Positions 7,249 through 63,365 of a DNA stretch of 64,000 bases are shown here, in pieces. A program made the position numbers and the translations under genes. The notes under the pieces were generated by a model. That model saw only the letters and a list, made by a program, of their open reading frames with translations, was not told the origin of the DNA and ran no database searches. This stretch comes from Octopus sinensis (lineage: Eukaryota): contig NC_043008.1 of assembly GCF_006345805.1 (NCBI RefSeq), positions 27,962,001-28,026,000 on the forward strand, read 5' to 3'. Position 1 is the stretch's first letter, and each line of letters starts with the position of its first letter.

Positions 7249-7445
7249 CATCCAAAAATACCTTAGGAATGAGAACCCAGGTTCGAAATTTCTCCAAGCC
7301 ACCTGACGAAGGCTGGATGGTATATCAGCCGAAAAGTTGTGTTAACAAGAAACAACATGAGGACAAATATCCGTCGAATGTAAATAATGAAAATAATGTA
7401 AATAATATACATAATTCCTCATTTCTTCTATATAGAACTGTATGC
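7249..7445 (+). mobile_element. HHR-bearing repeat family 1, copy 1
   Basis: Collinear with 41790-41970 and 45510-45660. Confidence 0.85.
7300..7341 (+). ncRNA. Minimal type I hammerhead ribozyme (family 1; helix III CG>AG lesion)
   Basis: cac-CTGACGA-a-GGCTG..CAGCC-GAAA-ag-TT-gtg. Confidence 0.7.
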
Positions 7446-15565: not shown

Positions 15566-15639
15566 AATAATATTAATAATAATAATATTAATAGTAACAA
15601 TAATAATAAAAAGAAGAATAACAAAACAAATAAGCCATC

Positions 15640-17285
15640 TATTTTGTATGGATGACTTAAAACTCTATGGTAAAGACGATAATGAATCTGAAGGCCTATT
15701 GCGCACTGTGAAAGCATTCAGTGATGACATCGGGATGGAGTTTGGGCTTGAGAAGTGTGCCAAGGCCACTTTCCAGGAAGGGAAAGTGAAGACAACAAAT
15801 TCAGTCGTGTTAGATGTTGACACAGTCATAAGAGAGTTGAGCAAGAACAAACCTACAAATATTTAGGAATAAATGAAGGCTCTGGTATTCAGCATGCAAG
15901 CATGAAAGAGAAGATCAGGAAGGAATGTTATCGGAGAGTTCGAGCAATCCTGAAATCTGAACTAAATGCACGTAACAAGTTGTTAGCTATAAATTCCTTA
16001 GCAGTTTCATTTGTTACTTATAGCTACGATGTGTTGAACTAGAATATGAGTGAAGTAAAGAAAATAGATAGGAAAATACGCAAGCTACTGAGTTGTAATA
16101 GAATGCACAACCCAAAGGCAGACGTAGATCGCCTTTATCTTCCCAGAGCCCAAGGAGGTCAAGGCCTGATCCAGTTTGAACTAGCTTAAAAACAACTACA
16201 ATTGGACTGGCCAAATATCTTGAAATAACGAATGACTGGATGCTAAATCTCGTGGAAAATCACGAAAGAAGCTTCATTCTATCATAAAGGAAAGCAAAAA
16301 ATTTGCTATTGATCTCGTGCAGGATACCCAAACTGAACAATCCGAGGGAAGTACGGCAACTATTGCTGCAAAGAAGGTGAAAATAATGGCAACGAAAAAG
16401 AGCACAAGCAATTGGCTGATAGGTGGGAGGAGAAACCTCTACACGGCAAGTATGTGGTCCGTAGCAAACAAGCTGATGTTAACCAGAAGCAAACCCATCC
16501 AGGCAGCTCAAGATCAAAGACTATTAACCCGGAACTACCAGGCCAATGTGATGAAAAATGGAGCAGACCCAAAATGCCGATTCTGCAACGACATGATTGA
16601 AACAGTGGACGACCTAATCTCTGGATGTAAAGTTTTAGCACCAGTAGAGTATAAATTAAGACATGACAGAGTTGGCCAATATCTACACTGGCTAATAAGT
16701 CGGCATTACAATATCAAAACTAAAGCTGTAACTGAAGGAGAAAATGTTACAATTCTGTGGGACTTTCCAGTACATACAGACCGAACAATCAAAGCCAACA
16801 AACCGGATATTTTTGTGAAAGACCAAAACAATAAAGTTTGCTTATTGATCGACATGACCATCCCCTGTGATCATAATATCTCAGCGAAAGAATTTGACAA
16901 GCTCAGAATATATAATAACCTGCTCATTGAAATTGAGAAAATGTGGCATCTCAAGGCGGTTACAATACCAGTGATCGTAGGAGCACTTGGAATGATCAAG
17001 AAGTGAACCGAAAATTATATGAGAATGATCCCTGGCTTACCATCCCTGCAAGATGTGCAAAAGGTTGTCTTAACTGGAACATCACAGGTATTGAGAAGAG
17101 CATTGTCGATGTGAGAACTACGATTACCCATGTAATTTAATTTACCTCTTTTCCTATAAAAAAAATGAACGCACTAGTGAGTTTAGCTTAATGGCCTACC
17201 AATGTATACCATGAGTTTCTTTGTCCTAGGAGTCGGGAACACACTCGGCAAGAAACGGAAGCAAATTTAAAAGAAGAAGAAAAAC
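15640..17285 (+). mobile_element. 5'-truncated R4/Dong-type LINE (RT C-half, Zn knuckle, REL endonuclease)
   Basis: YMDDLKLY..FSDDIGMEFGLEKCA; CRFC..ETVDDLISGC; RHD; ILWDFPVHTDRTIKANKPDI..LIDMTIP..K..Y; IPVIVGALG. Flanked by (TAA)-rich tracts on both sides. Confidence 0.95.
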
Positions 17286-17287
17286 CC

Positions 17288-17354
17288 ATAAATAATAATA
17301 ATAATAATAATAATATAATAATAATAATTAATAATAATAATTAATAATAATAAT

Positions 17355-17401
<47 letters not shown>

Positions 17402-17414
17402 TAATAATAATAAT

Positions 17415-17505
<91 letters not shown>

Positions 17506-17523
17506 GTAATAATAATAATAATA
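17288..17523. repeat. (TAA)n microsatellite
   Basis: Direct inspection. Confidence 0.95.
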
Positions 17524-18298
17524 AGCTCAGGACTCAAAGCAGAGACGGAGGGATTTTTAATTGCACCACAAGACCAAAGTATCCTCGCAAGAAATTAGCA
17601 ACACCATATAATGAAAAGAAACATAAGAATAACTGCGGAATATGTGGAGATGGACAAGAAACAATAAATCATATTATCTCTGACTGCCCAGTCCTGGCTA
17701 AGAAGGAATATATTCAGAGACACGACAGAGTCGGGACCTATATACACTGGAAGTTATGCCAACGTTATGGAATAACAACAGAAAAAAGATGGTATATTCA
17801 CACGCCAGAAAATGTCACAGAAAACGAGAAAGCAACCATACTCTGGGATATGCCAATACACACAGATAGAGAAATTAAGGCCAACAGGCCAGATATAGTT
17901 GTCAGGGATCATGAAGAAAAAATGCTTTCTAATTGATGTATCAAAACCAGCAGATGACAACGGGTCTCTAAATGAAATGGAGAAACTTTCAAAATACAAA
18001 GACCTGGAAATAGAGGTAACGCAAATGTGGAATCTAAAAACAGAAACAATTCCTATCATAGTAGGTGCATCAGGTATGATGAAAAAAACTCAGACAAATA
18101 CATAACAAAACACCAGGACTTACAAACATATGTAACATACAGAAAATTGCACTACTGGGCTCCCCACATATCCAACGCAAAACGCTTTCAATACAGTAAC
18201 TATCAGAACATCATAACAAATCACAGCACATACCCAAGACATACAGAGCTGCGCTCGGTCGTGAAGTGAAAGCACGCTATAAAAATAAAACTATTGAA
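17524..18298 (+). mobile_element. Short 3' fragment of a second R4/Dong family
   Basis: SGLKAETEGFLIAPQDQ, ETINHIISDC, RHDRVG, ILWDMPIHTDREIKANRPDIV, LIDVS..EKLSKYKDLEIE..IPIIVGA. Embedded in (TAA)n. Confidence 0.92.
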
Positions 18299-21629: not shown

Positions 21630-21639
21630 TATATGCATA

Positions 21640-22066
21640 CATACATATATAGCACCCGACGCGCTAATGATTCTTATTTCTCTATTGCCGACAAGGGGCT
21701 AAACATAGAGGAGATAAACAAGGACAGGCAAAGAGATTAAGTCGAATTCATCGACCCCAGTGCGTAACTGGTACTTAATTGATCGACACCGAAAGGATGA
21801 AAGCAAAGACGACCTTGTCCTACATATGTATATAAATATATACATATATATATGCATATATGCATACATACATATATAGCACCCGACGCGCTAATGATTC
21901 TTATTTCTTTATTGCCGACAAGGGGCTAAACATAGAGGAGATAAACAAGGACAGGCAAAGAGATTAAGTCGAATTCATCGACCCCAGTGCGTAACTGGTA
22001 CTTAATTGATCGACACCGAAAGGATGAAAGCAAAGACGACCTTGTCCTACATATGTATATAAATAT

Positions 22067-22169: not shown

Positions 22170-23400
22170 TTACACCAATTATTATTTATCAACTCAATGC
22201 AAATAAACTGCGTCCCATCTGACAGCTGGTTCTGCTTCCAATGTTGTATAGTATTGCCATTGATATGCAAACGTTACGTAAAATATGCATCATATTTGGT
22301 AATAAAGCCGATCTGAAATAAGGAGTATCACCAGAGTGAAGACTAAACCAAAGTAGCAATTGGTGGATTGATTCGATGTTCAGGTTAGATTGGATAGATA
22401 CATAATAAAATATAAAAATACAAGAAATTATAACGCGGCAAGAGGTTTTAGTCGGAGGAGAGATGTAGATACAGTAAGGTTTCATATTAGTCATAATAAT
22501 TTACAAAAGCTGTGTTTGTAATATTAATTAATAGTATTACTCATAATAAATTGTTAACAGGTTAAATGTATTTTCAGTTATTTACTAGTAGGTGGTTAAG
22601 CCTTTCGACGTGTTGTCCAAATTGTGATAGGCGAAGGTCCAACGTTCGAAGTAACTGGTCAGTTGAAATTTAAGAACAAATCACCAGCTATTAAGACCGT
22701 TATACAGGGTAAGATAAATAAATGAAAAGGCAGGTGGTATTTGTTGTAAGAGTCCCCAAGAAGCTTAAAACAGTAAATGTTAGATTAAAAAATAATATTA
22801 TGGAATACATATTACAAGAGGAGGAAGCACTTCGTACATTTAGGAACTAAGACAATTAGGTTTGGAAATGGTTGAACAGTTTATTAAAAGGAGTATGAAA
22901 TTACTAAAAACAATGAAACTGATTTATACCGTAGGAAAGATATGGAAATAACAATTATAATATATATTGTATTGCTATATTAATACATACATAGCTACAT
23001 GCATATGCCAGTTTAAACAAATAAATCTCCCAATGCAAGTATTAATACACATAATAACAATAATAACAATATTAATAGCACGGAGATAAAAGCTACCCGC
23101 AGAACAAACATCAAGCAAATACATACCTAAAAGGGGCTGTGGGGTGTTAAGTTAGTATTAAAGTGTTGAATAAATACATATTTAATTATGAGGAGGCGGG
23201 AAGTGAAATGTGTAAGTCCATTGGGGGTCTTCATTAATTAGAAGTAGACCTATGCTGACTTAGAGTGCTCTAGAATAAACTAAAGTGAAACAAGCAAACA
23301 ATGAGTATGCGATGTAAAGTATGTTGCAAATTAGAGACGAATTCATTCGTTATTATGTAACAAAAAAGAAACGCCACTTGTGCATCGATGACATTTTTTC
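22170..23400 (-). pseudogene. Decayed PLE fragment (RT N-terminal region and 5' region)
   Basis: KPYCIYISPPTKT..SNLN..LLLWF resembles the PLE RT 'CRLINP.KS..NQW....WF' block. 23200-23360 is an inverted homologue of 23886-24040. Confidence 0.5.
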
Positions 23401-23829
23401 CATTTAAAGTCTAGATTACTACTACTCAACGCCAGGGAAGAGCGAAATATACCTGTCTGCACAAGGATAAATTTGCTTTCTCTATGTATGAAAAAAGTGT
23501 AGGCATCTAATAGGCCTTTTCTCCTTTAACTGTACCCATAATTCTTCCCCAGGGAAATAGTATAATTCGATTCTAAATGTTGCCAAAATCTACTTCTAAT
23601 TAAGTTTGGTTAATAGATTTACTTATCAAGGTTCCTTTTAGGTAACCCAACAATATACCCTTACAATGATCTATCTGAGTTTTAAGATGTTTCTCCCATG
23701 TATAGCAACTAAATGATATTATATTATATTGCATCATTTTACTACCCCTCAGTATAACCTTAACACATTCTTATAACCATATAATACAAGTTACCTTAAC
23801 TCTTAAAATAAATTTCGTCTACAGAGGGC

Positions 23830-25230
23830 ACAAGTATCCATTCCCCTACCATACAACCCCCCCTTTATCATACCTGGACCCTCGACCATAATAAGGAATA
23901 AATTTGTCTGTATTTGTAACATACTTTACCATTGCATGCTCATTGTTTGCTTGTCTCATTTTAGTTTATTCTAGACCACTCTAAGTCAGCATTGGTCTAC
24001 TTCTATTTTATAAAGACCCATCTACTGGATTTACACATTTAACTACAACCAGTCCATAAACCTAGTTCTCCCGAACAAGGCAATAATATTCATTAAGCGC
24101 AACTCCGACCCCACTAGGGAAGAAATATGTATGAATTTAGCACTAGGAACACTTTAATAGAATACGGAGGAAAACTCTGAGCGCCATCAGACAAAGTTGA
24201 CTCATTCGACATAACAATGGGGTCTAGCATCTCTGCGCAAGTCAGGTATAGTAGGCATAAACTTATTATCGCAAATCTTATTATCGCTGAGCTTAGCGTG
24301 GGGATTATAAACATACGACATTTGTTCACTATACAGAAAAGTAGCAACGTAGAAATAGAAATTTGCCAAAAAAACTTTTCAAATTCCTTAATATATTTTG
24401 ATCGGAAACTGAATAGAAAAAACACTAAATGGTAAAATTCTTTGACATAAAGTTTAACCTTACCGAAACGTTCTATAAGCTAAATGAAAACTTTAAATTT
24501 TTGAGCCGAGGATCCAACCATACGTAACATATGTGAAGCATGCGAAGAAGCGTGGGTAATAGAATATCCACAACTGAACGGATATTCGATATGCATGCCG
24601 AGTATTTCAACTCAGCACTCAGAGTATAATATATAGCGAAAATAAGACAGAAAGTGTACGATGCCCAGGGGACATTATTAATAGGAGGGATAATCATATG
24701 CGTAACCGCAGCGCACCGGAACCTAGAAAAATAGAAATTATGACAGAGACCAAAAGAGAAAGAAAAAAACATGACACTAAAAGAGATAGATATAAAACAG
24801 AATCCACGAAACTACGATGATAGTAATAATGATAACAAAGCAGGAGAATGCACTATGAAACCAAAGCGATATATTAAAAGAGATGAAAAATAACTTATGA
24901 AATTATTTGGCTTAACCCAATCTGCAATTCACAACTGAAATCCAAAATAGGTCAAAGATTTTTCGCAGCATTCGATAAGCACTCACCGAAATACCCAGAT
25001 AACTAGATTAACCTTCATGCTAGAATAGAAATGGATGGATATTCCTCTGTTTTACATCCGCTAATGATATATCCCATGAAGACATTAGTCAATGAAAATG
25101 TCCACGGATACTACAGACGGCACTGTAATCATTCCAGGAATACAGATCGTGATCTTAAGAGAAATGTGATATCAGGATTCGCGCGTAGCGATGCATAAAA
25201 TGCTTATAAATTCCATCCAAGAATTATTGT
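23830..25230 (+). pseudogene. Decayed PLE, RT core
   Basis: SFDITMGSSISAQV..GINLL and frameshifted VKFFDIKFNL motifs. Same type as the RT at 51680-51960. Confidence 0.7.
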
Positions 25231-25237
25231 TATATTA

Positions 25238-27618
<2,381 letters not shown>

Positions 27619-27689
27619 ATATATATATATATATATTATATATATATATGTATATATATATTTTCATATATATACATACATATGCATAT

Positions 27690-27872
27690 AAATTCAACAA
27701 CAATTGAGGAATGACCTTAATAGGCCATTCGACCCACTAGAAAGAGCAGCCAGGACTCAAACCGCCAAGTAGTAGTAATCCAGAAATTAGAGAAAATTTA
27801 AAAACATTTACCCTAAATCATCTTTAGACAATGCATTGTTTCGGTGTTTTTAATGGCAAACCAGCTTAATAG
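27690..27872 (-). mobile_element. Truncated relative of the HHR element at 62104-62944
   Basis: taataggccattc..ccactagaaa..cagcca..agagaaaatttaaaaacatttaccct is shared. Retains the HHR 3' half GAAA-CAATGCATTG-TC (rc 27827-27842). Flanked by (TA)n. Confidence 0.8.
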
Positions 27873-37855: not shown

Positions 37856-37859
<4 letters not shown>

Positions 37860-38174
37860 GAAATGAAGAAAATGCTGACAAAATAATTTAAGTAAGGGAG
37901 AGTGTGTTTAATTAGGTGAAAGTTCTTATTACCGGTTGCGCATTTGTTATGCTTATCAAAAGATATTTTTTTAAGCGAGATAGAGTTCCTTTCTGATAGA
38001 TTTTTTTCTCTTATCAGATAATAGAAAAAAATCTATCAGAAAGGAACTCTATCTCTCTCAAAAATATCTTTTGATAAGCATAACAAATGCGCAACCGGTA
38101 AAAATAACTTTCCCCTAATTATATACACTCTCCCTTACTTAAATTATTTTGTCAGCATTTTCTTCATTTCCTTT
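37856..38174. repeat. Near-perfect ~154-bp-arm palindrome between (TA)n tracts, with a variant HHR-like motif in each arm
   Basis: 37856-38009 is the reverse complement of 38023-38174, with a 13-nt loop. Confidence 0.9.
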
Positions 38175-41541: not shown

Positions 41542-41970
41542 AGGTCACTGACTGGAATCGAACAGGGAATCTTGGGGTTAGTAGTCCGCTCTCTTAACCA
41601 TATGCCTGCGGGCAATTATAGATTGAAATTTAGGGCTTATAAATTATCCTATCCTTCCTTAATACCGTTCCCATATGTTGTTCATATCTGCACTCGGCCT
41701 GCTTAAGAGGTTGTAGGATGAAGTTAAAATAATAGAGAACACCACTGGAAAGTACAAAAACTAAAAGAAGCAGCACATATACTAGGACACAACATCGAAA
41801 TATGCCTTTAAATTGAGATCGCATGTTCAAAATTTCCCCAATACACCTGATGAAAGCTGGAGGGTATATTAGCCGAAACGTTGTGTTAACAATAAACAAG
41901 ATTAGGACAAATATCCGTCAAATGTATATAATCTACTTAATTGCTCATCTATTTAATATAGAACTGTATG
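41542..41970 (+). mobile_element. HHR family 1, copy 2, preceded by a minus-strand tRNA-like head
   Basis: 41542-41600 is the rc of the tRNA head at 45363-45429. 41790-41970 is collinear with 7249-7445. Confidence 0.8.
41843..41886 (+). ncRNA. Minimal type I hammerhead ribozyme (family 1)
   Basis: acac-CTGATGA-a-aGCTG..TAGCc-GAAA-CG-TT-gtgt. Confidence 0.75.
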
Positions 41971-45469: not shown

Positions 45470-45512
<43 letters not shown>

Positions 45513-45665
45513 TCAAAAAATACCTTAGGAATGAGAACCCAGATTTGAAATTTCCCCAAGACACCTGATGAAGGCTGGAGGGTATATCAGCCAAAACGTT
45601 GTGTTAAGAACAAACATGATGAGTACGAATATCTCTCAAAAGTAAATAATATAAATAATATATAT
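45355..45665 (+). mobile_element. tRNA-headed SINE-like element: Pol III head, (TAA)n, hammerhead tail (family 1, copy 3)
   Basis: A box TGGCGTAGTGG 45363-45373, B box GAGTTCGATTCC 45406-45417, (TAA)n 45431-45510, HHR 45560-45605. Confidence 0.85.
45560..45605 (+). ncRNA. Minimal type I hammerhead ribozyme (family 1; GAAA>AAAA lesion)
   Basis: gacac-CTGATGA-a-GGCTG..CAGCC-aAAA-CG-TT-gtgtt. Confidence 0.7.
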
Positions 45666-47502
45666 GATGTCATTATAACTACTATCCTGGTTCGTAGTCA
45701 AGTGATTTTCATGATAAGGAACAGATGATAGTCAGATGGGGTCAAATAATAGGATTTGGGAAGGCGATCAACAAGTTCAAATTCAAAGTCACGCACACTA
45801 AGTAAGGAAAGCAAGGACTTAAGTGCTGAAGCATTGCCTTGAAAAAACAAGATCCCTTTCGTCAGTTTTCTATGGCGTTTAATCTCGACAACCTTTTGCA
45901 ACTGCCTCAGCAAAGCAGCATAGCATTCTCTAGAGACGGAATGGCTCGTTTCATGATAACCATTAGCAACAATGCCTTTTACATCCCCCAAAATGAGATC
46001 ATCGCCTTCCCTGCAGACGAAATGACCGTAGCCTTCTTGGGAGCAGTGAGGAGGGCTGATTACACTGTATGGATTTTGTCCTTGTCTCTGGCTCAAAGTT
46101 ATGTGTCCTACACTCATTCTGGGTTAGGAAATGTTTAGAGCAACTAGGCTGGATGTGCCTCAAGTAATACCAGAAATATTAAAATATATACTTAAAGCAA
46201 AATTCTTTGTATGTTACAAAAATGTAATGTGGAATTCTTTTTGTTTTGCCGCGGTATCCTCTGGTGTTGAAATTCTATCTAGCATCTTTCATAGTCAAGG
46301 GAATATGTACCAGTGGAACACTGGAATCTTCTAAGGTTTTCCTACTCTTTTTATACTCCTGTGATAAAACTAGAAATAATTATTGTTATTATAGTAGTAT
46401 TTTGTTCTCTGTAGTTACTGTACGAATTACATTATCTTACAGTAGTTCAGATTTTATAGAATTACCTATGGTATATCATTCATCAGTAATTGTAAACTAT
46501 GTTTACAAAAGAATGTGCAATTATGATAAATCACATGCTATGCTTCATTAATAATGGTATTATTAATTTTTATAGAAAAGTAAATGATATAATGAAATAA
46601 ATTGTTTGTAATATATATTTATTAGTCTTAGAGATTATTAGCTTCTACTGATAGTTCCTCTTCATAGGTTACCAGTATGAGGTAGATAATAATTGAATAG
46701 TCATTGTTAAGTGTACAATATAATCCTTTTTTATTAATTACAGTGAAATGATAAACGTGTTTTAGCATCATCGTAGAGACTAAACTCATTATTAATTACC
46801 ATTTTGCACAAACATTTGAAGCATCTGAACAAATAGCCATTACTTAAAATTGAGAAATCAATGCTTTAGAATAGCCTTGGAATTCATATGTTGTTTATAA
46901 TGAAGCTGTTAAAATATTGAAGATTATGATATGAGATGCTATAGATGTCAGGGATTATTACTAGAAATATGAGCCACGAAATTAGAATTTGCTTGGAGAT
47001 ATACCTAAATTTATATATGTGAGTACCTGCATTATGTAAATATATTCTGGGAACGCTACTGAATATAGGAAAATTGCCGGTATGTAATATTGTGTGTAAC
47101 GCTATATAATTATGCATATCCTTGAGTGTATAGTAGGGTAAGAGTGAATAAATATATTGAACCAAAATTTCATACTCCCGAGGAGTAGGAAGTTGTATCA
47201 CTCTCAGTAAAATATGAAAGTACGTGATAATGTTGATGAAACAATTAAATCGTCGTGTATTTAATACTTGGTCATACGGATATTTTGTTATTTATTCAAT
47301 AGCATAGACTCGCGCACAGACCCACATACGTACACACACATAAGCACACACACATTCGCATATATATATACGCAAAGGCGTATGTACTGAAACGAGATAT
47401 CATAGGTATTTAGATTAAAATATGTTTACGCATGAACATAAATTTATCTAGTCCACATATACATGCATATATATGTGCACTAGATAAATATATGTATATA
47501 TG

Positions 47503-47654: not shown

Positions 47655-47820
47655 TGTGCATGGCCTAGGGGTTAGGTTGTTGGACTCACGGCTTTGCGGT
47701 CATGATTTCAATTCCTTGACTGGGTTGCACGGTGTGTTCTTGAGCAAAATCCTTTGTCTCACGTTCCTCAGCGATCACTTGGACACTTGACAGGTGACAC
47801 ACAGTGGACCTGTTCAGACA
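47652..47820 (+). mobile_element. tRNA-derived SINE 5' part (family D)
   Basis: A-box-like tggcctaggggttagg, B-box-like atttcaattcc, then gtgttcttgagcaaaa. Confidence 0.6.
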
Positions 47821-49286
<1,466 letters not shown>

Positions 49287-49289
49287 AAG

Positions 49290-52200
49290 AGTTAGGGAAT
49301 GGAGTAGTTAAGATCCCAGTCACATATGTTTCATAGCAAACGGAACCTCAGAGATGCTAAATATCCAAGTGAGGTGTATACCGAAAACTACTCTTCAGGC
49401 TAACGATACTTTGTTTAAAAGAAAATTTACAATGATGCAAGAAAATACATGATAACACAAAGAAGATTCAATCAGTATGTATAGAGAGTATAGTATGAGA
49501 TGTGAATATATATGTAGGGAGAAATAAAAATTAAAAGAAGGAAGAATAAAAAAACAAAGGAATGAGTGGAGTGTGGAATTTAAGCAAGTTCGTTTGACCG
49601 CTCGTATTCAATGGGGCAGTTATGGCAGAATTCCAGAAATTTGCAAGGGGGGTGTTATTTTTTAAATATGATAATGTGGAGAGAAGAAGTGGGGGTATAT
49701 TTTTGATTAAGAGGGAGAAAAAAGTGTGCATGAAGAATGCAAGAGAGAATGAGGAATTTAAATCCGGTTATTTGACCGATAGAGCTGTTTTGGCCGAATC
49801 ACAGAAATTGGCAAGGGGAATGTTATTAAAAAACAGATAATAATATGGCAGGAAGAGGGTGGGGAAATATTTCTGGTCAAGAGTGAAACAACATAAATAT
49901 GCATGAAGAAAGCAAGAGAGAACGGTGAAGAATAGTGGTAGGTACTACTGGTTTTTACCTGAAGAATGTATATTGTGTGCGGTGAGCGTGTTTACAGTAT
50001 AACGTTATAAACATGTGGTTGGCATATGTATTTATAAGTTTATGAAGGGAGGTGAGTAGGAGGAGGAGACAGACTAAATGAGATTATTAAAAATTTAAAC
50101 GGTAAGGAATATGCTCAATTGTATGTAAATTATAATAAGGAATTGAAAGGAAGGTATATTGTAGGTTTAATACAGATTGGTAGTGAGGGTAGATAAGAGG
50201 GAAAATGTATGCAAGTTAGGCAAAGTAGGATGGGGTTGCTGGTATTTCTATTTTGAGAATATATTTAGTAATCGATGATTGCAGGTAAAAATTATACTGC
50301 GGCGTTCAATAAGACAATCCGTGGATTGCAAAATATCTAAGACTTCGTCTATGCAGAGATCACGCCTGTCATTATAGTTGTAGTATGGCTTGGCATGGGT
50401 GACTATGGGCCACTAGAGAGTGTAATCTGTTGAATTAATATTCAGTTTATTGATAAACTGAGATAAAGATGTACTGTTGGATTCTGTTTAAACTTGAAAC
50501 TGGAGAAGCCCTTGTTCACTCTAACTTTGAAGGTGGTGCTACATGAGATAATATATATGTAGTTACATTTGGCAATCGATACTGTGCACTTACAAACAAT
50601 GTTGTTTGCGACAAAGCGGTTATCTAAAGGACGGGACATGAAGCGTCTGAAGTTGCAAAAGATTATAAGGGATGATTCGGAGGGACTTGTACGGGGATTG
50701 TTATTTAGAGAGGAACTGGTGTTTGGTGTGTTATTATTGCTGGCGATAAAGTTGGTACTTTTAACGAGTACATGGTGGTGTTGTGAGGTTGTATAATATG
50801 GTAGCTATTGTGTCCGAAGTTATCTTGTAGATTTTGCTCTATATTTGAAAGCGGTATAGTTAGGCGTTGTGCTAAATTTAAGGATCGTGTGTTTGTAGTG
50901 GAAATAATCGAACATATACTTGTCGTTATGAGGTTTAATGTTGTTAAGGCGGGGTAAATTGCTGTTTTGGGTTTAATTGCATGGCGCTGGAGATTATGTA
51001 GAGCTAATTTATTAGAGTGGAGCTCAGCTGGTTGTGGATTTCTGAATTTCTTGTTGCTACGAATATTGGATTATGTCAATTTTATTGGCTGGCAGTTAAA
51101 TATTTTTCTCAGAGAGCTAGACTGAGGAAATTGGTTTTTGAGTAAGTCGAAGAAGAGTCTGAATATTAATGGCAAAGAGGGGTGGAACAAGACAACTTCC
51201 CGGGTTCTCTTTCCTCTAATGCGACTAGGGGGGTTAACTGGGCGAGGATAGTGTGTTGGATGTGTACGGTGGTGTATGTTTCGTTGAGGTTGGATGTATA
51301 TAGGATTTTGGAGTCATCTGGTTGGAGGGTTTTTGTTAGGCCGTCTGTTACTCTGAAATTTAGACGGGTATTGGAGAGGTTGGATAAGGGTGATATGTTT
51401 ACTATATAGGGGTGCACAAGTGGTTTTATTTACAGGTTTAGTGGAGAGAGGAATATCTCACATGGGGATGTATTCGATTGAGATTTTATATCCTGAACTT
51501 TGATGGGCACTATTGATCAAATAAAACTTTAATCGCAGGTACTGAGGAAATCTGGTTGGAAACGCTTTTTCTAATAGATTTTAAGACAAAGGAGAGTGGT
51601 TGAAGAGGAAGTTCATGCAGATGAGTTTTTACCCCAGGTTTGTGCTATGGGTAAATAGTTTGGTTTTGTAAGTTCAGGATTTAGTCCAACAAATTAGCAG
51701 TTTTAATGTTGTAACAGAAAGAGATGCTTAGGTCGATGTTTTTTGTTTTAATACTTCTTTTTCTTGTATGTTCGATTATCCGATTGCGAGAATTTTGGAT
51801 GGCGAACAGAGCGTCATCTGTGTATAAACCATCGGAGATGCTAGGAAAGTGTTCATGGAGACAGTTAAGAATGTAATAACCTGCAAGTTTCGTAATTTGA
51901 GCAGAATCTCTGGTCCACATAGTGATATCGAAAAAGTTGGGTGTATCCTTGCGTGCCCTGGATATCCCACCGAACAGTATTATATTTCGGCAGGCTGCTA
52001 AACTTATATCAATATTAGCATCAACTGGTAAGGAAAAATACAGAGGTAAGTATGTAAATGACAATAAGGAATTAAAGGGAAGATACACTGTGTGTTTAAA
52101 ATATGGTAGTCGCGAGGGTAGATTGGAGGGAAGTTAGTGGAAAGGTAGTGTTCGTTATTATTGATGGCTTTCAGATTGGTATTTGCTAAAGAGTTGAAGG

Positions 52201-56584: not shown

Positions 56585-56924
56585 ATATATATATATCTAT
56601 ATATATGTATGTATATATAAAAAAAAGCACGTTTATCAATTTGTTTTGCAAGATACCTGCTGTGAAATCATGCGTTGAAATAGTGTTATTGTTTTTCGGG
56701 ACGGTTTTTTTGTTGTTTTTTCTTGGTAACTAAACACGTGCACGGTGTATGTGTTCTCTCGTTTCTTCATTTTATAAAACAATATTCACACATGTATATT
56801 ATCCGGAAATCTTTCGTCACACATCTATAATTTCTTCAGCGACACTTTTCATTTGCATGTGTGCTCATGCTCCACTTACTCCATTCTGTTCTTCTAAGAT
56901 GTGCATCCACATTTGTGAGCTATT

Positions 56925-57663
56925 CCAGGTGATAGGTTAGCATCTTCATACACTGGGTATTCTGTCATCAGAGACAAGGTGTGCATGTATGACAAGTCTA
57001 GACAGGGAATTCACAGTTTATAAAGGGATAAAATAGTAGATAAAATAGTAGATAAAATAATACAAACAGGAGAAGAAAGCTCATCGTCTTCCAGAGTGTA
57101 TGGAAGTTCGTCCGTACCTCTCTAAAGGTATAAGTTCCAGGTAATTCCAAGCGGTATTTTTAATCTTGCGTTCATGTTGAAGGAATATATCAAGTGGTTA
57201 GCTGGTAATGAAACGGTCCACGTGGGTATATAGAGTGAGAAAGATAGACATCATGATAGACAGATATCGACAGAATAGAAGAGAGAGGAGAAAGAGAGAA
57301 ACTTGATCTACTCCTTCAACATAAACGCAACATACAAAGTGTTGCCAGAATACTGCCTCGATTTACCTGGGATTAAACTTAAGGACCATTACCCTCACGG
57401 AAGTACGGACCAATCTCCATACCCTCTGGAAGAAGATGAGTCATAGCATTTATCGTCTATGAATGATTTTATTCCTTTATAAACTGTGAATTCCCTGTCT
57501 AGAACTTTCTTAATATCCGATGATGGAATGACCAGTGTATGGAGATGCTAACCTATTATCTTGGATATCCCAGAAACAGCTGTAAGACAACAAATAATCA
57601 ATTAATTGCTTCTAATTCGCCTTATTCTGATGACTTGCGATACTCGTCCTGTCTTTTTCCTCT

Positions 57664-57665: not shown

Positions 57666-57757
<92 letters not shown>

Positions 57758-57916
57758 TTGTATAATATCAACATAACTTCACAGTCCCGTAGAGGGAATT
57801 ACACCACCGCTATATAGCCCTGGGAAGCATCGACGCTTCCTGTCGGCTTTGACACATTTCCTGTGTCCGTATATTCGCAGTGAGGAGGCAAGCACCACAC
57901 CAGCTAGGACTAGTAA

Positions 57917-57962
57917 CCTGAAGACATGCATGTTTCTGGGTCTTTCCCGTCATCAGTCCAGG
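57917..57962 (-). ncRNA. Type I hammerhead ribozyme, inverted copy
   Basis: Exact rc of 58229-58274. Confidence 0.85.
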
Positions 57963-58228
57963 GTAGCGAGTCCCGCTAGCGGTGATACTTGCCAAGCCTT
58001 CGCAAGCCCTATTCCTAGAGCTATATAGCGGTGATGTAATTCCCTCTAAGGGACTGTCCCGTTATGTTGACATTATACAACCACTCTGTCGCTCCACTAC
58101 CGCCCATGTCTCTATGAGTCATTTAGAAATTCAATATTTCTAATTACGGTGACCAGTGAATAGATTTCACTTTAAATATATATATTTGCGAAGGCTTGGC
58201 AAGTATCACCGCTAGTGTGACTCGCTAC

Positions 58229-58274
58229 CCTGGACTGATGACGGGAAAGACCCAGAAACATGCATGTCTTCAGG
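58229..58274 (+). ncRNA. Type I hammerhead ribozyme
   Basis: CCTGGA-CTGATGA-cGGG-aaaga-CCCa-GAAA-CATGCATG-TC-TTCAGG, with a GUC cleavage triplet. Confidence 0.85.
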
Positions 58275-59256
58275 TTGCTAGTCCTAGCTGGTGAGAGTGC
58301 TTGCCTCCTCATTGTAAATATACGGACACAGGTAATGTGTCAAAGCCGACAGAAAGCGTCGATGCTTCCTAGGGCTATATAGCGATGGTGTAATTCCCTC
58401 TACGTTAATTCCTGTCACGTTATATTGACATTATACAACCACTCTATCGCTCCACTACCGCTTATGTCTCTTTAGAAATTCAATATTCAATATTTCTAAT
58501 ATATATATACATTACGCGCGTAATGTCCGTGTATATATGCGGATATTCTGTTGTATGTATGTGTGTGTACGCGCGTGCGTGTGGGTGCGTGTGTGTTTAT
58601 GTACGTGTTTACACGCGAGTGCGTGTGTATGCTTATAGGCTTGGAGGCGTATATGTACGCGTGAATGTGGGTGTATATATCCATGATGATATGTATGTAC
58701 TAGAAGTCCATTTAATTCAAGGAACCAGATTAAATGCTCATCAGCTCTGATTTACAACGCATTAAGTCCCCAGACGAAACTGTTGATGTACTGACAATTC
58801 TACAACTAAATTTTATCAATCTCCTGACCACCATGCTTGGTCCATAACCTCTATACATCCTTATCTTTACATTCTTTTACACTTTTATCATGTTTTTATC
58901 AGGTTTTTTTACTTTTATTTCTATTTCTATTTTTACTTTATATTTCTTTATACCCCCTTTACATCTACTTACAACCCTTTATCCTCTACATTTTTATATT
59001 ATTCTATACTTACACTTTTTATACATTTTTTATCCCTCGTCCCGAACTCTCGCCCCTCCATCTTCACCTCTATATATGTATTTATTTATTTACATTACCT
59101 CAACATCCAATTTTCCTCATTCTACATTGAGAGAAGAAAGAGATGGACGCTTCAACTCTATGCTGCTACCGCATTATGTCGCACGTGAATGAGAGGATTT
59201 GCATCCCCAACCAAGAATTTTTGATGTAACACATGTCCTTGTGGAAGGTGTGGTAC

Positions 59257-59334
59257 GCGGCTGAAGAAGGCCACAGACATACATTATGCATTGTTATAAA
59301 TCTGTCTAATAAAGGCCCGAAACATATGTACCGC
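59257..59334 (+). ncRNA. Type I hammerhead ribozyme in a probable PLE 3' terminal region (58690-59370)
   Basis: GCGG-CTGAAGA-aGGCC..GGCCc-GAAA-CATATG-TA-CCGC, with a GUA triplet. Confidence 0.85.
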
Positions 59335-59416
59335 TGAATCCTTCGCATCATGTTTTTATTTTATTTTGATCTATATATAATATATATTATATATATATAT
59401 ATATACATATATATAT

Positions 59417-59462
<46 letters not shown>

Positions 59463-59622
59463 AGTGATACCACCATGCCGAAATAGCAGTCAAAACCCTA
59501 ACCCGGGCAATTTGACTGGTCTGGTAAATACGTGCATGTATATATATGTATGGACCTTCGTATGTGTAAGTATAACGTATGTTCTGTATGTATATATTTG
59601 GATTTATGTACCCATCTGGTAT

Positions 59623-59681
59623 ATTCCACTGACGAAGGCAGAGCTTATTTGAAGCAAAGTCAGAAATCCAGGATCTTGAAT
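59623..59681 (+). ncRNA. Hammerhead motif within a small element (59465-59885) with inverted 29-bp repeats
   Basis: ATTCca-CTGACGA-aGGC..GTCa-GAAA-TCCAGGA-TC-ttGAAT. Inverted repeat 59469-59497 / 59771-59799. Confidence 0.65.
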
Positions 59682-59881
59682 TATCCAGTAAAACCTTTTT
59701 TGCTAATTTATTTTGTCTCTGCCTCATCCCATTGCGCGATATGAACATTTAAGGTGGTTTTTAGGGTCAAGGTTTTGATTGCTATTTCGGCATGGTGGTT
59801 TCTCTAATATACCATTGTCTATAGTTTCAAATAATTATTACCTTTGTATGGTATTCATTCCCATGCTATATTATAACAATG

Positions 59882-61060: not shown

Positions 61061-62029
61061 TTGTTGTGGACTCAAATACAGTTGAAGCGGAAGCAGGATC
61101 TAATCATAAAAGCTCGAGTGGTATGACAATAATCTAGTTATTGTAGATATTATTTCTTGAACTCATACTACCATTTCTCCTACACCCACTCCTCGGTATA
61201 TTTTTGACTGTAACCTCCATTTGTCGATATAGTCTAATTGTTTATTTTCAGATATTAGTCGTTGGTGTTCGTCGATTTTTGCAAGTCTTCACGTTGTCTC
61301 TTGTTCTGAGCATATTAAGTTAGAATCCCTTCTGGACTCACACCACTTCAGTTGAAAACACGGCAATACGGAATTTACAACAATTAATTCAATGGGGATT
61401 TCTAAGTCAACTAAATCTAATCCTATTTACACATTCATCGAGAAACTTAATAGCTGTTCGGCTTATTGTCAAACACATTGTAATTACATCATTTCTAATC
61501 TTGTTTATACAATAACATTTATATTATCTTCAAGGTATTCGCTGAATAAATGGTTACTTCTTCAATCAAAATTACATGTATTCAAACAGAAATATGTAAA
61601 CATATATTCAAAGAAAATGCTTTTGTACGACTGGGTACAGGAACTATAAATGTACACGTTTAAATGATATACATGTAAATCATAAGCAAAACGAACAAAT
61701 ATTATTTAAACGAACGTAATTTATATAAGAATGTGAAGAACATCAATGTAGCTATGTAAATTTAAGCGTACTGTAGAATAAAAACTTGAAATTGCATGTA
61801 GTGAAACACAATAGTTTTGAAAACGACATAAACATATTTTCCAGAAAATAAGACGGATCTTATTACCTATATTTACAAATATGCATGCATATATGCATGC
61901 ATATATTCATACAAACATGCACACAAAATCACACACCTAAATGCGTGTACATTTGTATGTGAATCTGAGAGTATATTAGGGTATGTAAATATAAATATAT
62001 ACATGTATATATATATATATTATATATAT

Positions 62030-62073
<44 letters not shown>

Positions 62074-62334
62074 TTATATATATAATATATATATATATAT
62101 AATTTAATCAATATAGGGTGGTGAAAAAAATTTTTGTAGAATTCTTTTGCCACCAGCGGGCCCAGTGGGAAAAAATTAAATAGTCATAGACCATTTTTAA
62201 GTTCAACATCAACAATCAAGGAACGGCCATAATAGGCCATTCACCACTAGAAATAACAGCCAAAGCTTCAACCCCGCAAATAAAGATCAATTCCGTAAAC
62301 AGAGAAAATTTAAAAAAAACATTTACCCTGTAAT

Positions 62335-62437
62335 TTCTTGTACGATGCACCGTTTCGTCTGCTGTTTAATGGTAAACTAACCTGATTAAATTAAATCAAG
62401 CCAATCTTCCATAGGCCCTCAGATTCTTCAGCAAGAA
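62335..62437 (-). ncRNA. Type I hammerhead ribozyme, inverted copy
   Basis: Near-exact rc of 62718-62819. Confidence 0.85.
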
Positions 62438-62717
62438 ATAGCCAAGATTGTTGATGTTGAACTTAAAAATGGTCTATGACTATTTAATTTTTTCCACTGG
62501 GCCGCTGGTGGCAAAAAGAATTCTACAAAAATTTTTTTCACCACCCTATATTGATTAATTATGAATTTTCTGGTTAATTCCGTAATGGAATCGACGGCTT
62601 ATATTTATTTGCTGCCGATAAATTTGGCGCGAGTGCGACGATTTGAAAATTTTAGGTCAGATATTAACTTGGCAGGGTCGGAAATGCCTCGTGTAATATC
62701 TGTTCCGACTTGGCTAT

Positions 62718-62819
62718 TTCTTGCTGAAGAATCTGAGGGCCTATGGAAGATTGGCTTGATTTAATTTAATCAGGTTAGTTTACCATTAACAGCAGACGAA
62801 ACGGTGCATCGTACAAGAA
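62718..62819 (+). ncRNA. Type I hammerhead ribozyme with large helix II insertion
   Basis: TTCTTG-CTGAAGA-aTCTG..CAGAc-GAAA-CGGTGCATCG-TA-CAAGAA, with a perfect 6-bp helix I and a GUA triplet. Confidence 0.88.
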
Positions 62820-62940
62820 TTACAGGGTAAATGTTTTTTTAAATTTTCTCCTGTTTACGGAATTGATCTTTATTTGCGGTTGAAGCTTTGGCTGTTATTT
62901 CTAGTGGGTGAATGGCCTATTATGGCCGTTCCTTGATTGT

Positions 62941-62986
<46 letters not shown>

Positions 62987-63011
62987 TATATATATCTATA
63001 TATATATATGT

Positions 63012-63089
<78 letters not shown>

Positions 63090-63365
63090 TATATTATAAT
63101 ATATATATTATATATATAATATAATATATGTATGTATGTATATATATATACTAATATTAGGGTTAGCAAAGGACTTTTTAAGTAGAAGAAATGGCTTACA
63201 TTTTGGCTGCTATTTCTGAGCTTCGGTATGTGGTAATGCATTCCTTTGCTGACCCCTTAATTTAGTATTACTACAATTTACCGTATAACGGTCCTGTTTT
63301 CATACCGAATTCTACTTGGTGAAATTATTGATTACTTCGTAATTAATTAGTTTTACCCTTAATTA

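Follow-up and report, generated by a model that had tools for sequence, protein, structure and literature searches.

A hammerhead-bearing 489-nt unit with an inverted arm in a (TA)n tract, probably a non-LTR retrozyme inserted by Penelope-like enzymes

The window, a 64-kb stretch of AT-rich, animal-type DNA that is rich in microsatellites, contains a short element flanked on both sides by (TA)n tracts. Self-alignment resolves a direct unit of 489 nt in the order A-S-B, preceded by an inverted arm and followed by the first nucleotides of a further unit, ATTGTTGAT at 62936-62944, which repeat 62447-62455 (Table 1). The reverse complement of the inverted arm (62099/62104-62446) aligns unbroken to B plus A (BLAST E 2e-108 and 9e-49); its left end is ambiguous where it overlaps the TA tract, owing to an extra one-base difference at the edge. 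At its 3' end the inverted arm reaches about 105 nt further along the unit than the direct copy, which stops at 62944. Aligned to one another, the two arms give 336 matches in 346 columns, with no substitutions and nine indel events, every one of them in a homopolymer. The direct part amounts to 1.02 units with a single hammerhead, and self-alignment finds no long direct terminal repeat (LTR) in the element. An earlier note, made from the sequence alone, had described this layout as an inverted B plus A, followed by A-spacer-B and nine nucleotides of A, with arms that differ mainly by homopolymer indels, and both descriptions were borne out. Its further statement that the B-A junction is fully represented in the inverted arm only was half right: the junction is absent from the direct part, but it is also found in a second copy at 27680-27861 and in all four sequencing runs compared below. 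The left (TA)n tract is likely one half of the target microsatellite, and since (TA)n on both flanks hides any target-site duplication, none can be read.

The element is non-coding, as had been proposed. The longest stop-to-stop frame, whether in the element or in the closed unit, is 69 aa, and none of 24 Penelope-like proteins (from 150, those of at least 440 aa minus two repetitive ones) matched the 489-nt unit below E 0.14, so that no remnant of a Penelope-like element (PLE) protein is seen in it. ARAGORN finds no tRNA gene. The spacer does contain a 13-mer resembling a polymerase III A box at 62625-62637, and B-box look-alikes occur only with two mismatches. Because such two-mismatch look-alikes are equally common on the opposite strand, the 13-mer was dismissed as evidence, and a tRNA origin was rejected for want of a tRNA gene and a convincing B box.

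Table 1. Features of the element, its predicted ribozyme and related sequences in the window.
Feature	Position	Strand	Basis or remark
Left (TA)n tract	62006-62103	.	sequence and tract map
Inverted 5'-truncated arm, B then about 112-116 nt of A	62104-62446	-	left end 62099-62104
Head-to-head joint of two 5' truncation points	62446-62447	.	1 nt microhomology
Full 489-nt non-coding unit	62447-62935	+	37% G+C
A	62447-62562	+	116 nt; self-alignment
S (spacer)	62563-62708	+	146 nt; self-alignment
B	62709-62935	+	227 nt; self-alignment
First 9 nt of next unit, 3' end of direct copy	62936-62944	+	self-alignment
Right (TA)n tract	62945-63156	.	sequence and tract map
Predicted type I hammerhead in B	62718-62819	+	descriptor, fold
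Stem I, 6 bp	62718-62723/62814-62819	+	
Hammerhead core CUGAAGA	62724-62730	+	
Stem II, 4 bp	62732-62735/62793-62796	+	A.C at 62731/62797
GAAA of hammerhead	62798	+	
GUA triplet	ending 62813	+	descriptor; predicted cut after 62813
Inverted hammerhead copy	62335-62437	-	core 62431, predicted cut after 62341
Old relative (73%), 3' part of B plus about 16-20 nt of A	27680-27861	-	between (TA)n tracts
Decayed Penelope-like ORF	50227-52076	-	tblastn, phmmer
Decayed Penelope-like ORF	24041-24390	+	tblastn, phmmer

The predicted hammerhead has a 57-nt loop 2 that holds a hairpin of its own and a stem III of 3 bp formed as a near-palindromic stem-loop. Folding 62714-62823 without constraints gives this structure as the energy minimum (-27.9 kcal/mol), and the descriptor detects six hammerhead sites in the window compared with none or one per shuffle, two in total, across 20 block shuffles. 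The Rfam Hammerhead_1 model scores 18 bits (E 0.34) against a gathering score of 34, a low value that results from the 57-nt insertion in loop 2, and Rfam at its gathering threshold yields no match in the window. The best relaxed Rfam match, MIR1435, merely reflects the long hairpin and was rejected. The earlier note had seen an intact hammerhead on each strand. The core is indeed intact, but the base of stem II (position 10.1-11.1) is an A.C mismatch, and the two cores (62724 on the plus strand, 62431 on the minus strand) are a single ribozyme duplicated by inversion; the descriptor detects no ribozyme on the antisense strand of the unit. The G10.1-C11.1 pair is highly conserved in hammerheads according to the available text of PMC4209133, and the available portion of PMC3088659 does not address it.

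The closed unit folds better than shuffled sequence (z -3.1, 30 shuffles), and modeling of the closed monomer predicts that stem I is trapped there (pair probability 0.01). A read-through RNA of the locus is predicted to form a 340-bp hairpin that would trap both ribozymes, each paired with its mirror copy. With one hammerhead per strand, the locus cannot release a monomer.

At least part of the unit is present in 20 of 24 listed public runs (12 studies, several organisms); run X20 (feces, share 0.06) was left out of the family counts. Four runs, X1, X3, X7 and X8, each in the form of contigs, were compared at 82% likeness. Contigs drop rare variants, X7 and X8 are guessed to be RNA, and X1 may be the window's own source. 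The unit was found in 12,117 contigs of X1, 5,971 of X3, 50 of X8 and 5 of X7, a depth that is no copy number, and the family is plainly abundant and diverse. Coverage of the unit extends to all 30 of 30 bins in X1 and X3 and to 28 of 30 in X7 and X8. An end-to-start joint, 62939 to 62452, occurs in 28 contigs of X1, 12 of X3 and one each of X8 and X7, that is, in runs taken to be DNA and in the two guessed to be RNA. One X7 record spans B-A-S and another S-B. Contigs of the four runs taken together cover all three unit junctions, and no single contig spans the whole unit. Such end-to-start joints in independent contigs indicate that the unit closes on itself. Searches of metagenome contigs with two motifs and of viral contigs with one 20-nt ribozyme motif returned no matches.

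Variation within the family bears upon the ribozyme. Variants are listed at 27 of 498 positions, seven of them inside the hammerhead. Two base pairs change from G-C to A-U, 62723/62814 (64/58% in X1, 50/84% in X3) and 62735/62793 (32/37% in X1, 19/49% in X3), the two sides of each pair being counted separately and unphased on one molecule. At 62797 a variant converts the A.C mismatch at 10.1-11.1 into an A-U pair in 38% (X1), 62% (X3) and 100% (X8), while the change of 62731 from A to T, at 4-13%, restores no pair. The free core position 7 varies, with two alternative letters, and the 12 fixed core positions carry no variants, an observation that is weak alone, as about 0.65 would be expected at 27/498 (hand computed). 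The pair-preserving variants point to selection on the RNA fold. The old relative at 27680-27861 spans the B-A junction. Of the hammerhead it retains GAAA and a stem III in which a G-C pair has become A-U, and it is without the CUGA half. In two further records (X3 record 13 and X8 record 27) the hammerhead region is about 85% alike and is joined to different sequence upstream; judged by sequence, these may represent related families with a similar ribozyme.

The window holds other repeats of comparable appearance. About 4 kb away, an unrelated and older hammerhead repeat (57755-58500) shows the same inverted-plus-tandem plan, with a unit of about 354 nt, about 1.4 direct units and an inverted arm of 251 nt. 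Its hammerhead is a compact type I form with a palindromic stem III and a GUC site (cores 58235 on the plus strand and 57956 on the minus strand), its arms are 91% alike with 17 substitutions and no homopolymer indels, its ends are offset by about 59 nt, and its left flank is (TA)n(GA)n. A third type I hammerhead-like motif at 59257-59335 (core 59261, GUA at 59330) also has an A.C at the base of stem II, and the best local fold there is not a hammerhead. At 59466-59802, two (TA)n tracts enclose a 39-nt inverted pair that has a hammerhead-like core at 59629. A motif resembling TTTG.CTG.TATTTC, a possible common recognition signal, is shared by this pair, the 3' part of B (62887) and 63201. A short repeat whose hammerhead is of the minimal PLE type (an extra A after the core, a long stem II) is present in three copies, 80-85% alike, at 7251-7406, 41791-41941 and 45509-45668, two of them adjoining (AAT)n. 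A near-perfect palindrome of 317 nt (93%) at 37857-38173 sits beside (TA)n tracts, and no hammerhead was found in it. An old inverted repeat at 56912-57576 (66% over about 300 nt), ahead of (TA)n at 57667, is possibly another decayed insertion of the same type as the 489-nt element. Between (TA)n tracts at 21633-22049 lies a tandem 190-nt duplication with one substitution and no gaps, either a young duplication or an assembly repeat. No local alignment between the 489-nt unit and six neighboring repeats scored above 38.

Coding remnants of a potential helper are also present in the window. The two decayed ORFs at 50227-52076 and 24041-24390 match proteins of 700-800 aa that carry reverse transcriptase (RT) motifs, then a cysteine linker, and an endonuclease-like region at the C terminus (tblastn E 1e-21), and the remnants keep these parts in that order. 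A phmmer search with the remnant gives 237 matches at E <= 0.001. From these RT and endonuclease motifs, we take both to be PLE-like. Pfam names no PLE family in the matched proteins and reports a weak RVT_1 in one of ten; the remnant itself escaped Pfam (110 of 122 listed frames, plus or minus one added), Atlas and a word-index search and was found by phmmer. The remnant at 24041-24390 adjoins inverted repeats at 23202-25825. Other non-LTR remnants at 15567-18266 and 47706-49150 give weak RVT_1 and zf-RVT matches in Pfam, and their frames resemble restriction-like endonuclease (REL) and RTE/CR1-type ends. Among the 24 Penelope-like proteins compared, none links the 489-nt unit by sequence to a particular helper.

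We propose that the element is probably a recent-looking insertion of a non-LTR retrozyme, with a predicted hammerhead, into (TA)n by Penelope-like enzymes. Briefly, tandem units would be transcribed, and hammerhead cleavage in each unit would release 489-nt monomers that could be circularized. A Penelope-like endonuclease/reverse transcriptase would cut both strands of a TA tract, and each cut end would prime internally on the sense RNA, at about unit position 9 on the right and about 113 on the left. The right-end cDNA would measure 498 nt, a full lap plus nine, and the left-end cDNA about 340 nt, and their 3' ends would be joined head-to-head. As both cDNAs cross the cleavage site, the template would be a ligated circle or an uncut multimer, and the closed 489-nt map leads to the same pair of options; to the extent that sequence can tell, this bears out the earlier suggestion of a circular or multimeric RNA of about 489 nt. 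The identity between the two copies of B favors one physical unit as template, and a homogeneous tandem donor fits too.

At AT-rich sites in vitro, a PLE protein cleaves both strands of the target and extends them, starting at two positions inside the RNA and using mostly uncut RNA (Frangieh et al. 2024, PMC11167929, available portion). In line with these data, two primings, one per target strand, appear to fit the locus better than a single strand switch. The still more specific proposal that the 489-nt circular RNA was itself the direct template, on which one dimeric Penelope-like enzyme primed from both target strands and one of the cDNAs completed a full lap, is tentative, and we regard it as possible rather than likely.

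In a repeat of such high copy number, bordered by (TA)n, long-read sequencing or assembly might have produced a spurious inversion while the family itself is genuine. Indels confined to homopolymers are the pattern typical of long-read consensus error, and all nine differences between the arms are of this kind. Another part of the window holds a direct repeat of 190 nt that is free of gaps. The contigs of X1, X3, X7 and X8 contribute no strand-change joint, at 62446/62447 or otherwise, among the nine joints listed, so that the inversion is unconfirmed outside the assembly, also for the rest of the family, although contigs are expected to lose rare variants. A fold-back chimera, in contrast, would mirror from one center. 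At this joint two different positions of the unit meet, the B arms are separated by 262 nt, and the sequence order of the inverted arm includes a B-A junction that is absent from the direct part. The arms also have minority alleles in common at 62499, 62539-40, 62723 and 62814 (product of the eight allele shares 0.0007 if independent, which the shares are not), indicating that they derive from one source and not from two collapsed loci; four of the arm differences (62493, 62518, 62787 and 62817) likewise vary among the family contigs. Moreover, the older neighboring element shares the plan with 17 substitutions between its arms, so the plan predates, and is independent of, sequencing error. 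The inverted layout is probably real, and its origin as an artefact is unlikely.

Three other histories start from a genuine inversion. The pieces might be what is left of an autonomous PLE, its truncated ends with pseudo-LTR and tail, in place of a free-standing non-autonomous unit. The layout matches that published for PLE ends (PMC8557442, PMC3846280), PLE pseudo-LTRs bear type I hammerheads (PMC4209133), all as given in the available text of these sources, and a few contigs (the X3 and X8 records above) carry the hammerhead region next to other upstream sequence. Opposing this, the map closes at 489 nt and independent contigs cover each of the three junctions, the share running into unlike DNA is zero in X1 and X3 (where contigs are mostly about 100 nt), the unit is without an ORF or PLE protein remnant, and its ribozyme has a full stem III instead of the minimal PLE form; such an origin is improbable. 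Spread as DNA, in the manner of an ordinary tandem hammerhead satellite whose inversion arose without any RNA intermediate, through template switching in replication or through repair, would account for end-to-start joints in DNA runs and has precedent in hammerhead satellites such as pDo500 (PMC2837043, available portion). Here, in contrast, just 1.02 units and an incomplete inverted copy stand alone inside a microsatellite, and the relative 35 kb off is a solitary piece, also flanked by (TA)n, that stops close to where the direct copy ends. For about 105 nt the inverted arm goes past what the direct part could template, and the selection on RNA fold suggested by the pair-preserving variants also argues against a purely DNA-borne history, which we consider quite unlikely.

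The last of these histories accepts a retrozyme family and attributes the inversion to one RT that switched strand, as the earlier note had proposed, or primed itself. Self-priming has been invoked for head-to-head inverted PLE joints, and an antisense-template version has been proposed (PMC3846280, available portion). Fold-back at this locus would add no more than the 9 nt of A next to B, unless 104 nt had since disappeared from the right end, whereas the inverted arm contains about 113 nt; the joint is without a palindrome and shows 1 nt of microhomology. The copy at 27680-27861, moreover, stops about 16-20 nt into A, close to where the direct copy ends, which suggests a true priming site. 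A single strand switch therefore fits poorly and is very unlikely. The earlier note had also called the unit circularly permuted, but the start of the direct copy at 62447 is a 5' truncation point and hence is not itself evidence of permutation. Overall, the note's description of the layout holds, and its interpretation is supported in part.

Retrozymes and the PLE-type insertion layout are both already described. The retrozyme helper has been argued from co-occurrence and sequence likeness (PMC7229834, PMC7761336, bioRxiv 10.64898/2026.07.22.740005), and how PLEs build tandem and inverted insertions is presented as an open task (PMC8557442), in the text available from each. A young, abundant, ORF-free family with a PLE footprint offers ends and joints that can be counted to test both helper and insertion mode; one locus alone settles neither. 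If two-ended priming on a circle is true, inverted retrozyme insertions would constitute a genomic record of it and would provide the missing insertion-level proof that Penelope-like elements mobilize animal retrozymes, and start sites could be mapped from thousands of copies and at least two families in one genome. In open main texts we found no published description of the 489-nt family or of inverted retrozyme insertions; supplements may list some.

Among known systems, viroid-like circular RNAs resemble the unit in size and in the predicted compact circle. They carry a ribozyme in each polarity, and a two-polarity viroid-like RNA was rejected because the hammerhead lies in one polarity only and the unit occurs in DNA runs. 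The pDo500 satellite of Dolichopoda crickets (PMC2837043, likened here by its description only, as far as available) is similar in its length of about 500 nt, its one hammerhead per unit and its compensatory stem changes. It forms satellite arrays, whereas the 489-nt copy is dispersed and inverted.

The resemblance to PLEs concerns the insertion. In the available text of Craig et al. 2021 (PMC8557442) and Arkhipova et al. 2013 (PMC3846280), PLE insertions comprise a partial tandem plus an adjacent inverted 5'-truncated copy, mostly head-to-head, with an optional tail of 30-40 nt and a bias toward (TA)n targets. The likeness to PLEs that had been claimed at the outset holds against this published plan in the inverted 5'-truncated copy, the partial tandem, the offset ends and the (TA)n. 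With endonuclease-bearing PLEs in particular, the locus shares the head-to-head plan, the offset of the outer ends, a (TA)n target that hides any target-site duplication and a hammerhead near the 3' end. It differs in having no palindrome at the joint, a canonical rather than minimal hammerhead and an end offset of about 105 nt (about 59 nt in the neighbor at 57755-58500) in place of a 30-40-nt tail. An autonomous Penelope-like element was rejected, as there is no ORF with RT and GIY-YIG domains.

Non-LTR retrozymes, for which a PLE origin is argued in bioRxiv 10.64898/2026.07.22.740005, are the closer counterpart of the unit itself. As described in the portions available of that preprint and of PMC7229834, they are likewise non-coding, a few hundred bases long and below 50% G+C, each unit having a single type I hammerhead; further points in common are the high abundance, the head-to-tail junctions, a well-folded predicted circle and PLE-like remnants in the genome. 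At 489 nt, the unit exceeds the 170-400 nt of the retrozymes in PMC7229834 (Cervera and de la Pena 2020) and falls within the 51-972 nt of the preprint (Li, Clavereau and Pollet). It departs from retrozymes in its long loop-2 hairpin and in having A.C or A-U, not G-C, at 10.1-11.1, and the trapped stem I predicted for its closed monomer is unlike most metazoan retrozymes in PMC7229834. The insertion here is inverted and head-to-head, whereas in the available main text of the preprint 'inverted' appears only in the references. The preprint takes at least two consecutive hammerhead-bearing units as the mark of an active retrozyme; with its single direct hammerhead, the locus falls short of that mark and represents a monomer derivative. 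Apart from two consecutive units at the locus, the 489-nt unit appears to possess the testable features of non-LTR retrozymes set out in the available text of PMC7229834, PMC7761336 and bioRxiv 10.64898/2026.07.22.740005.
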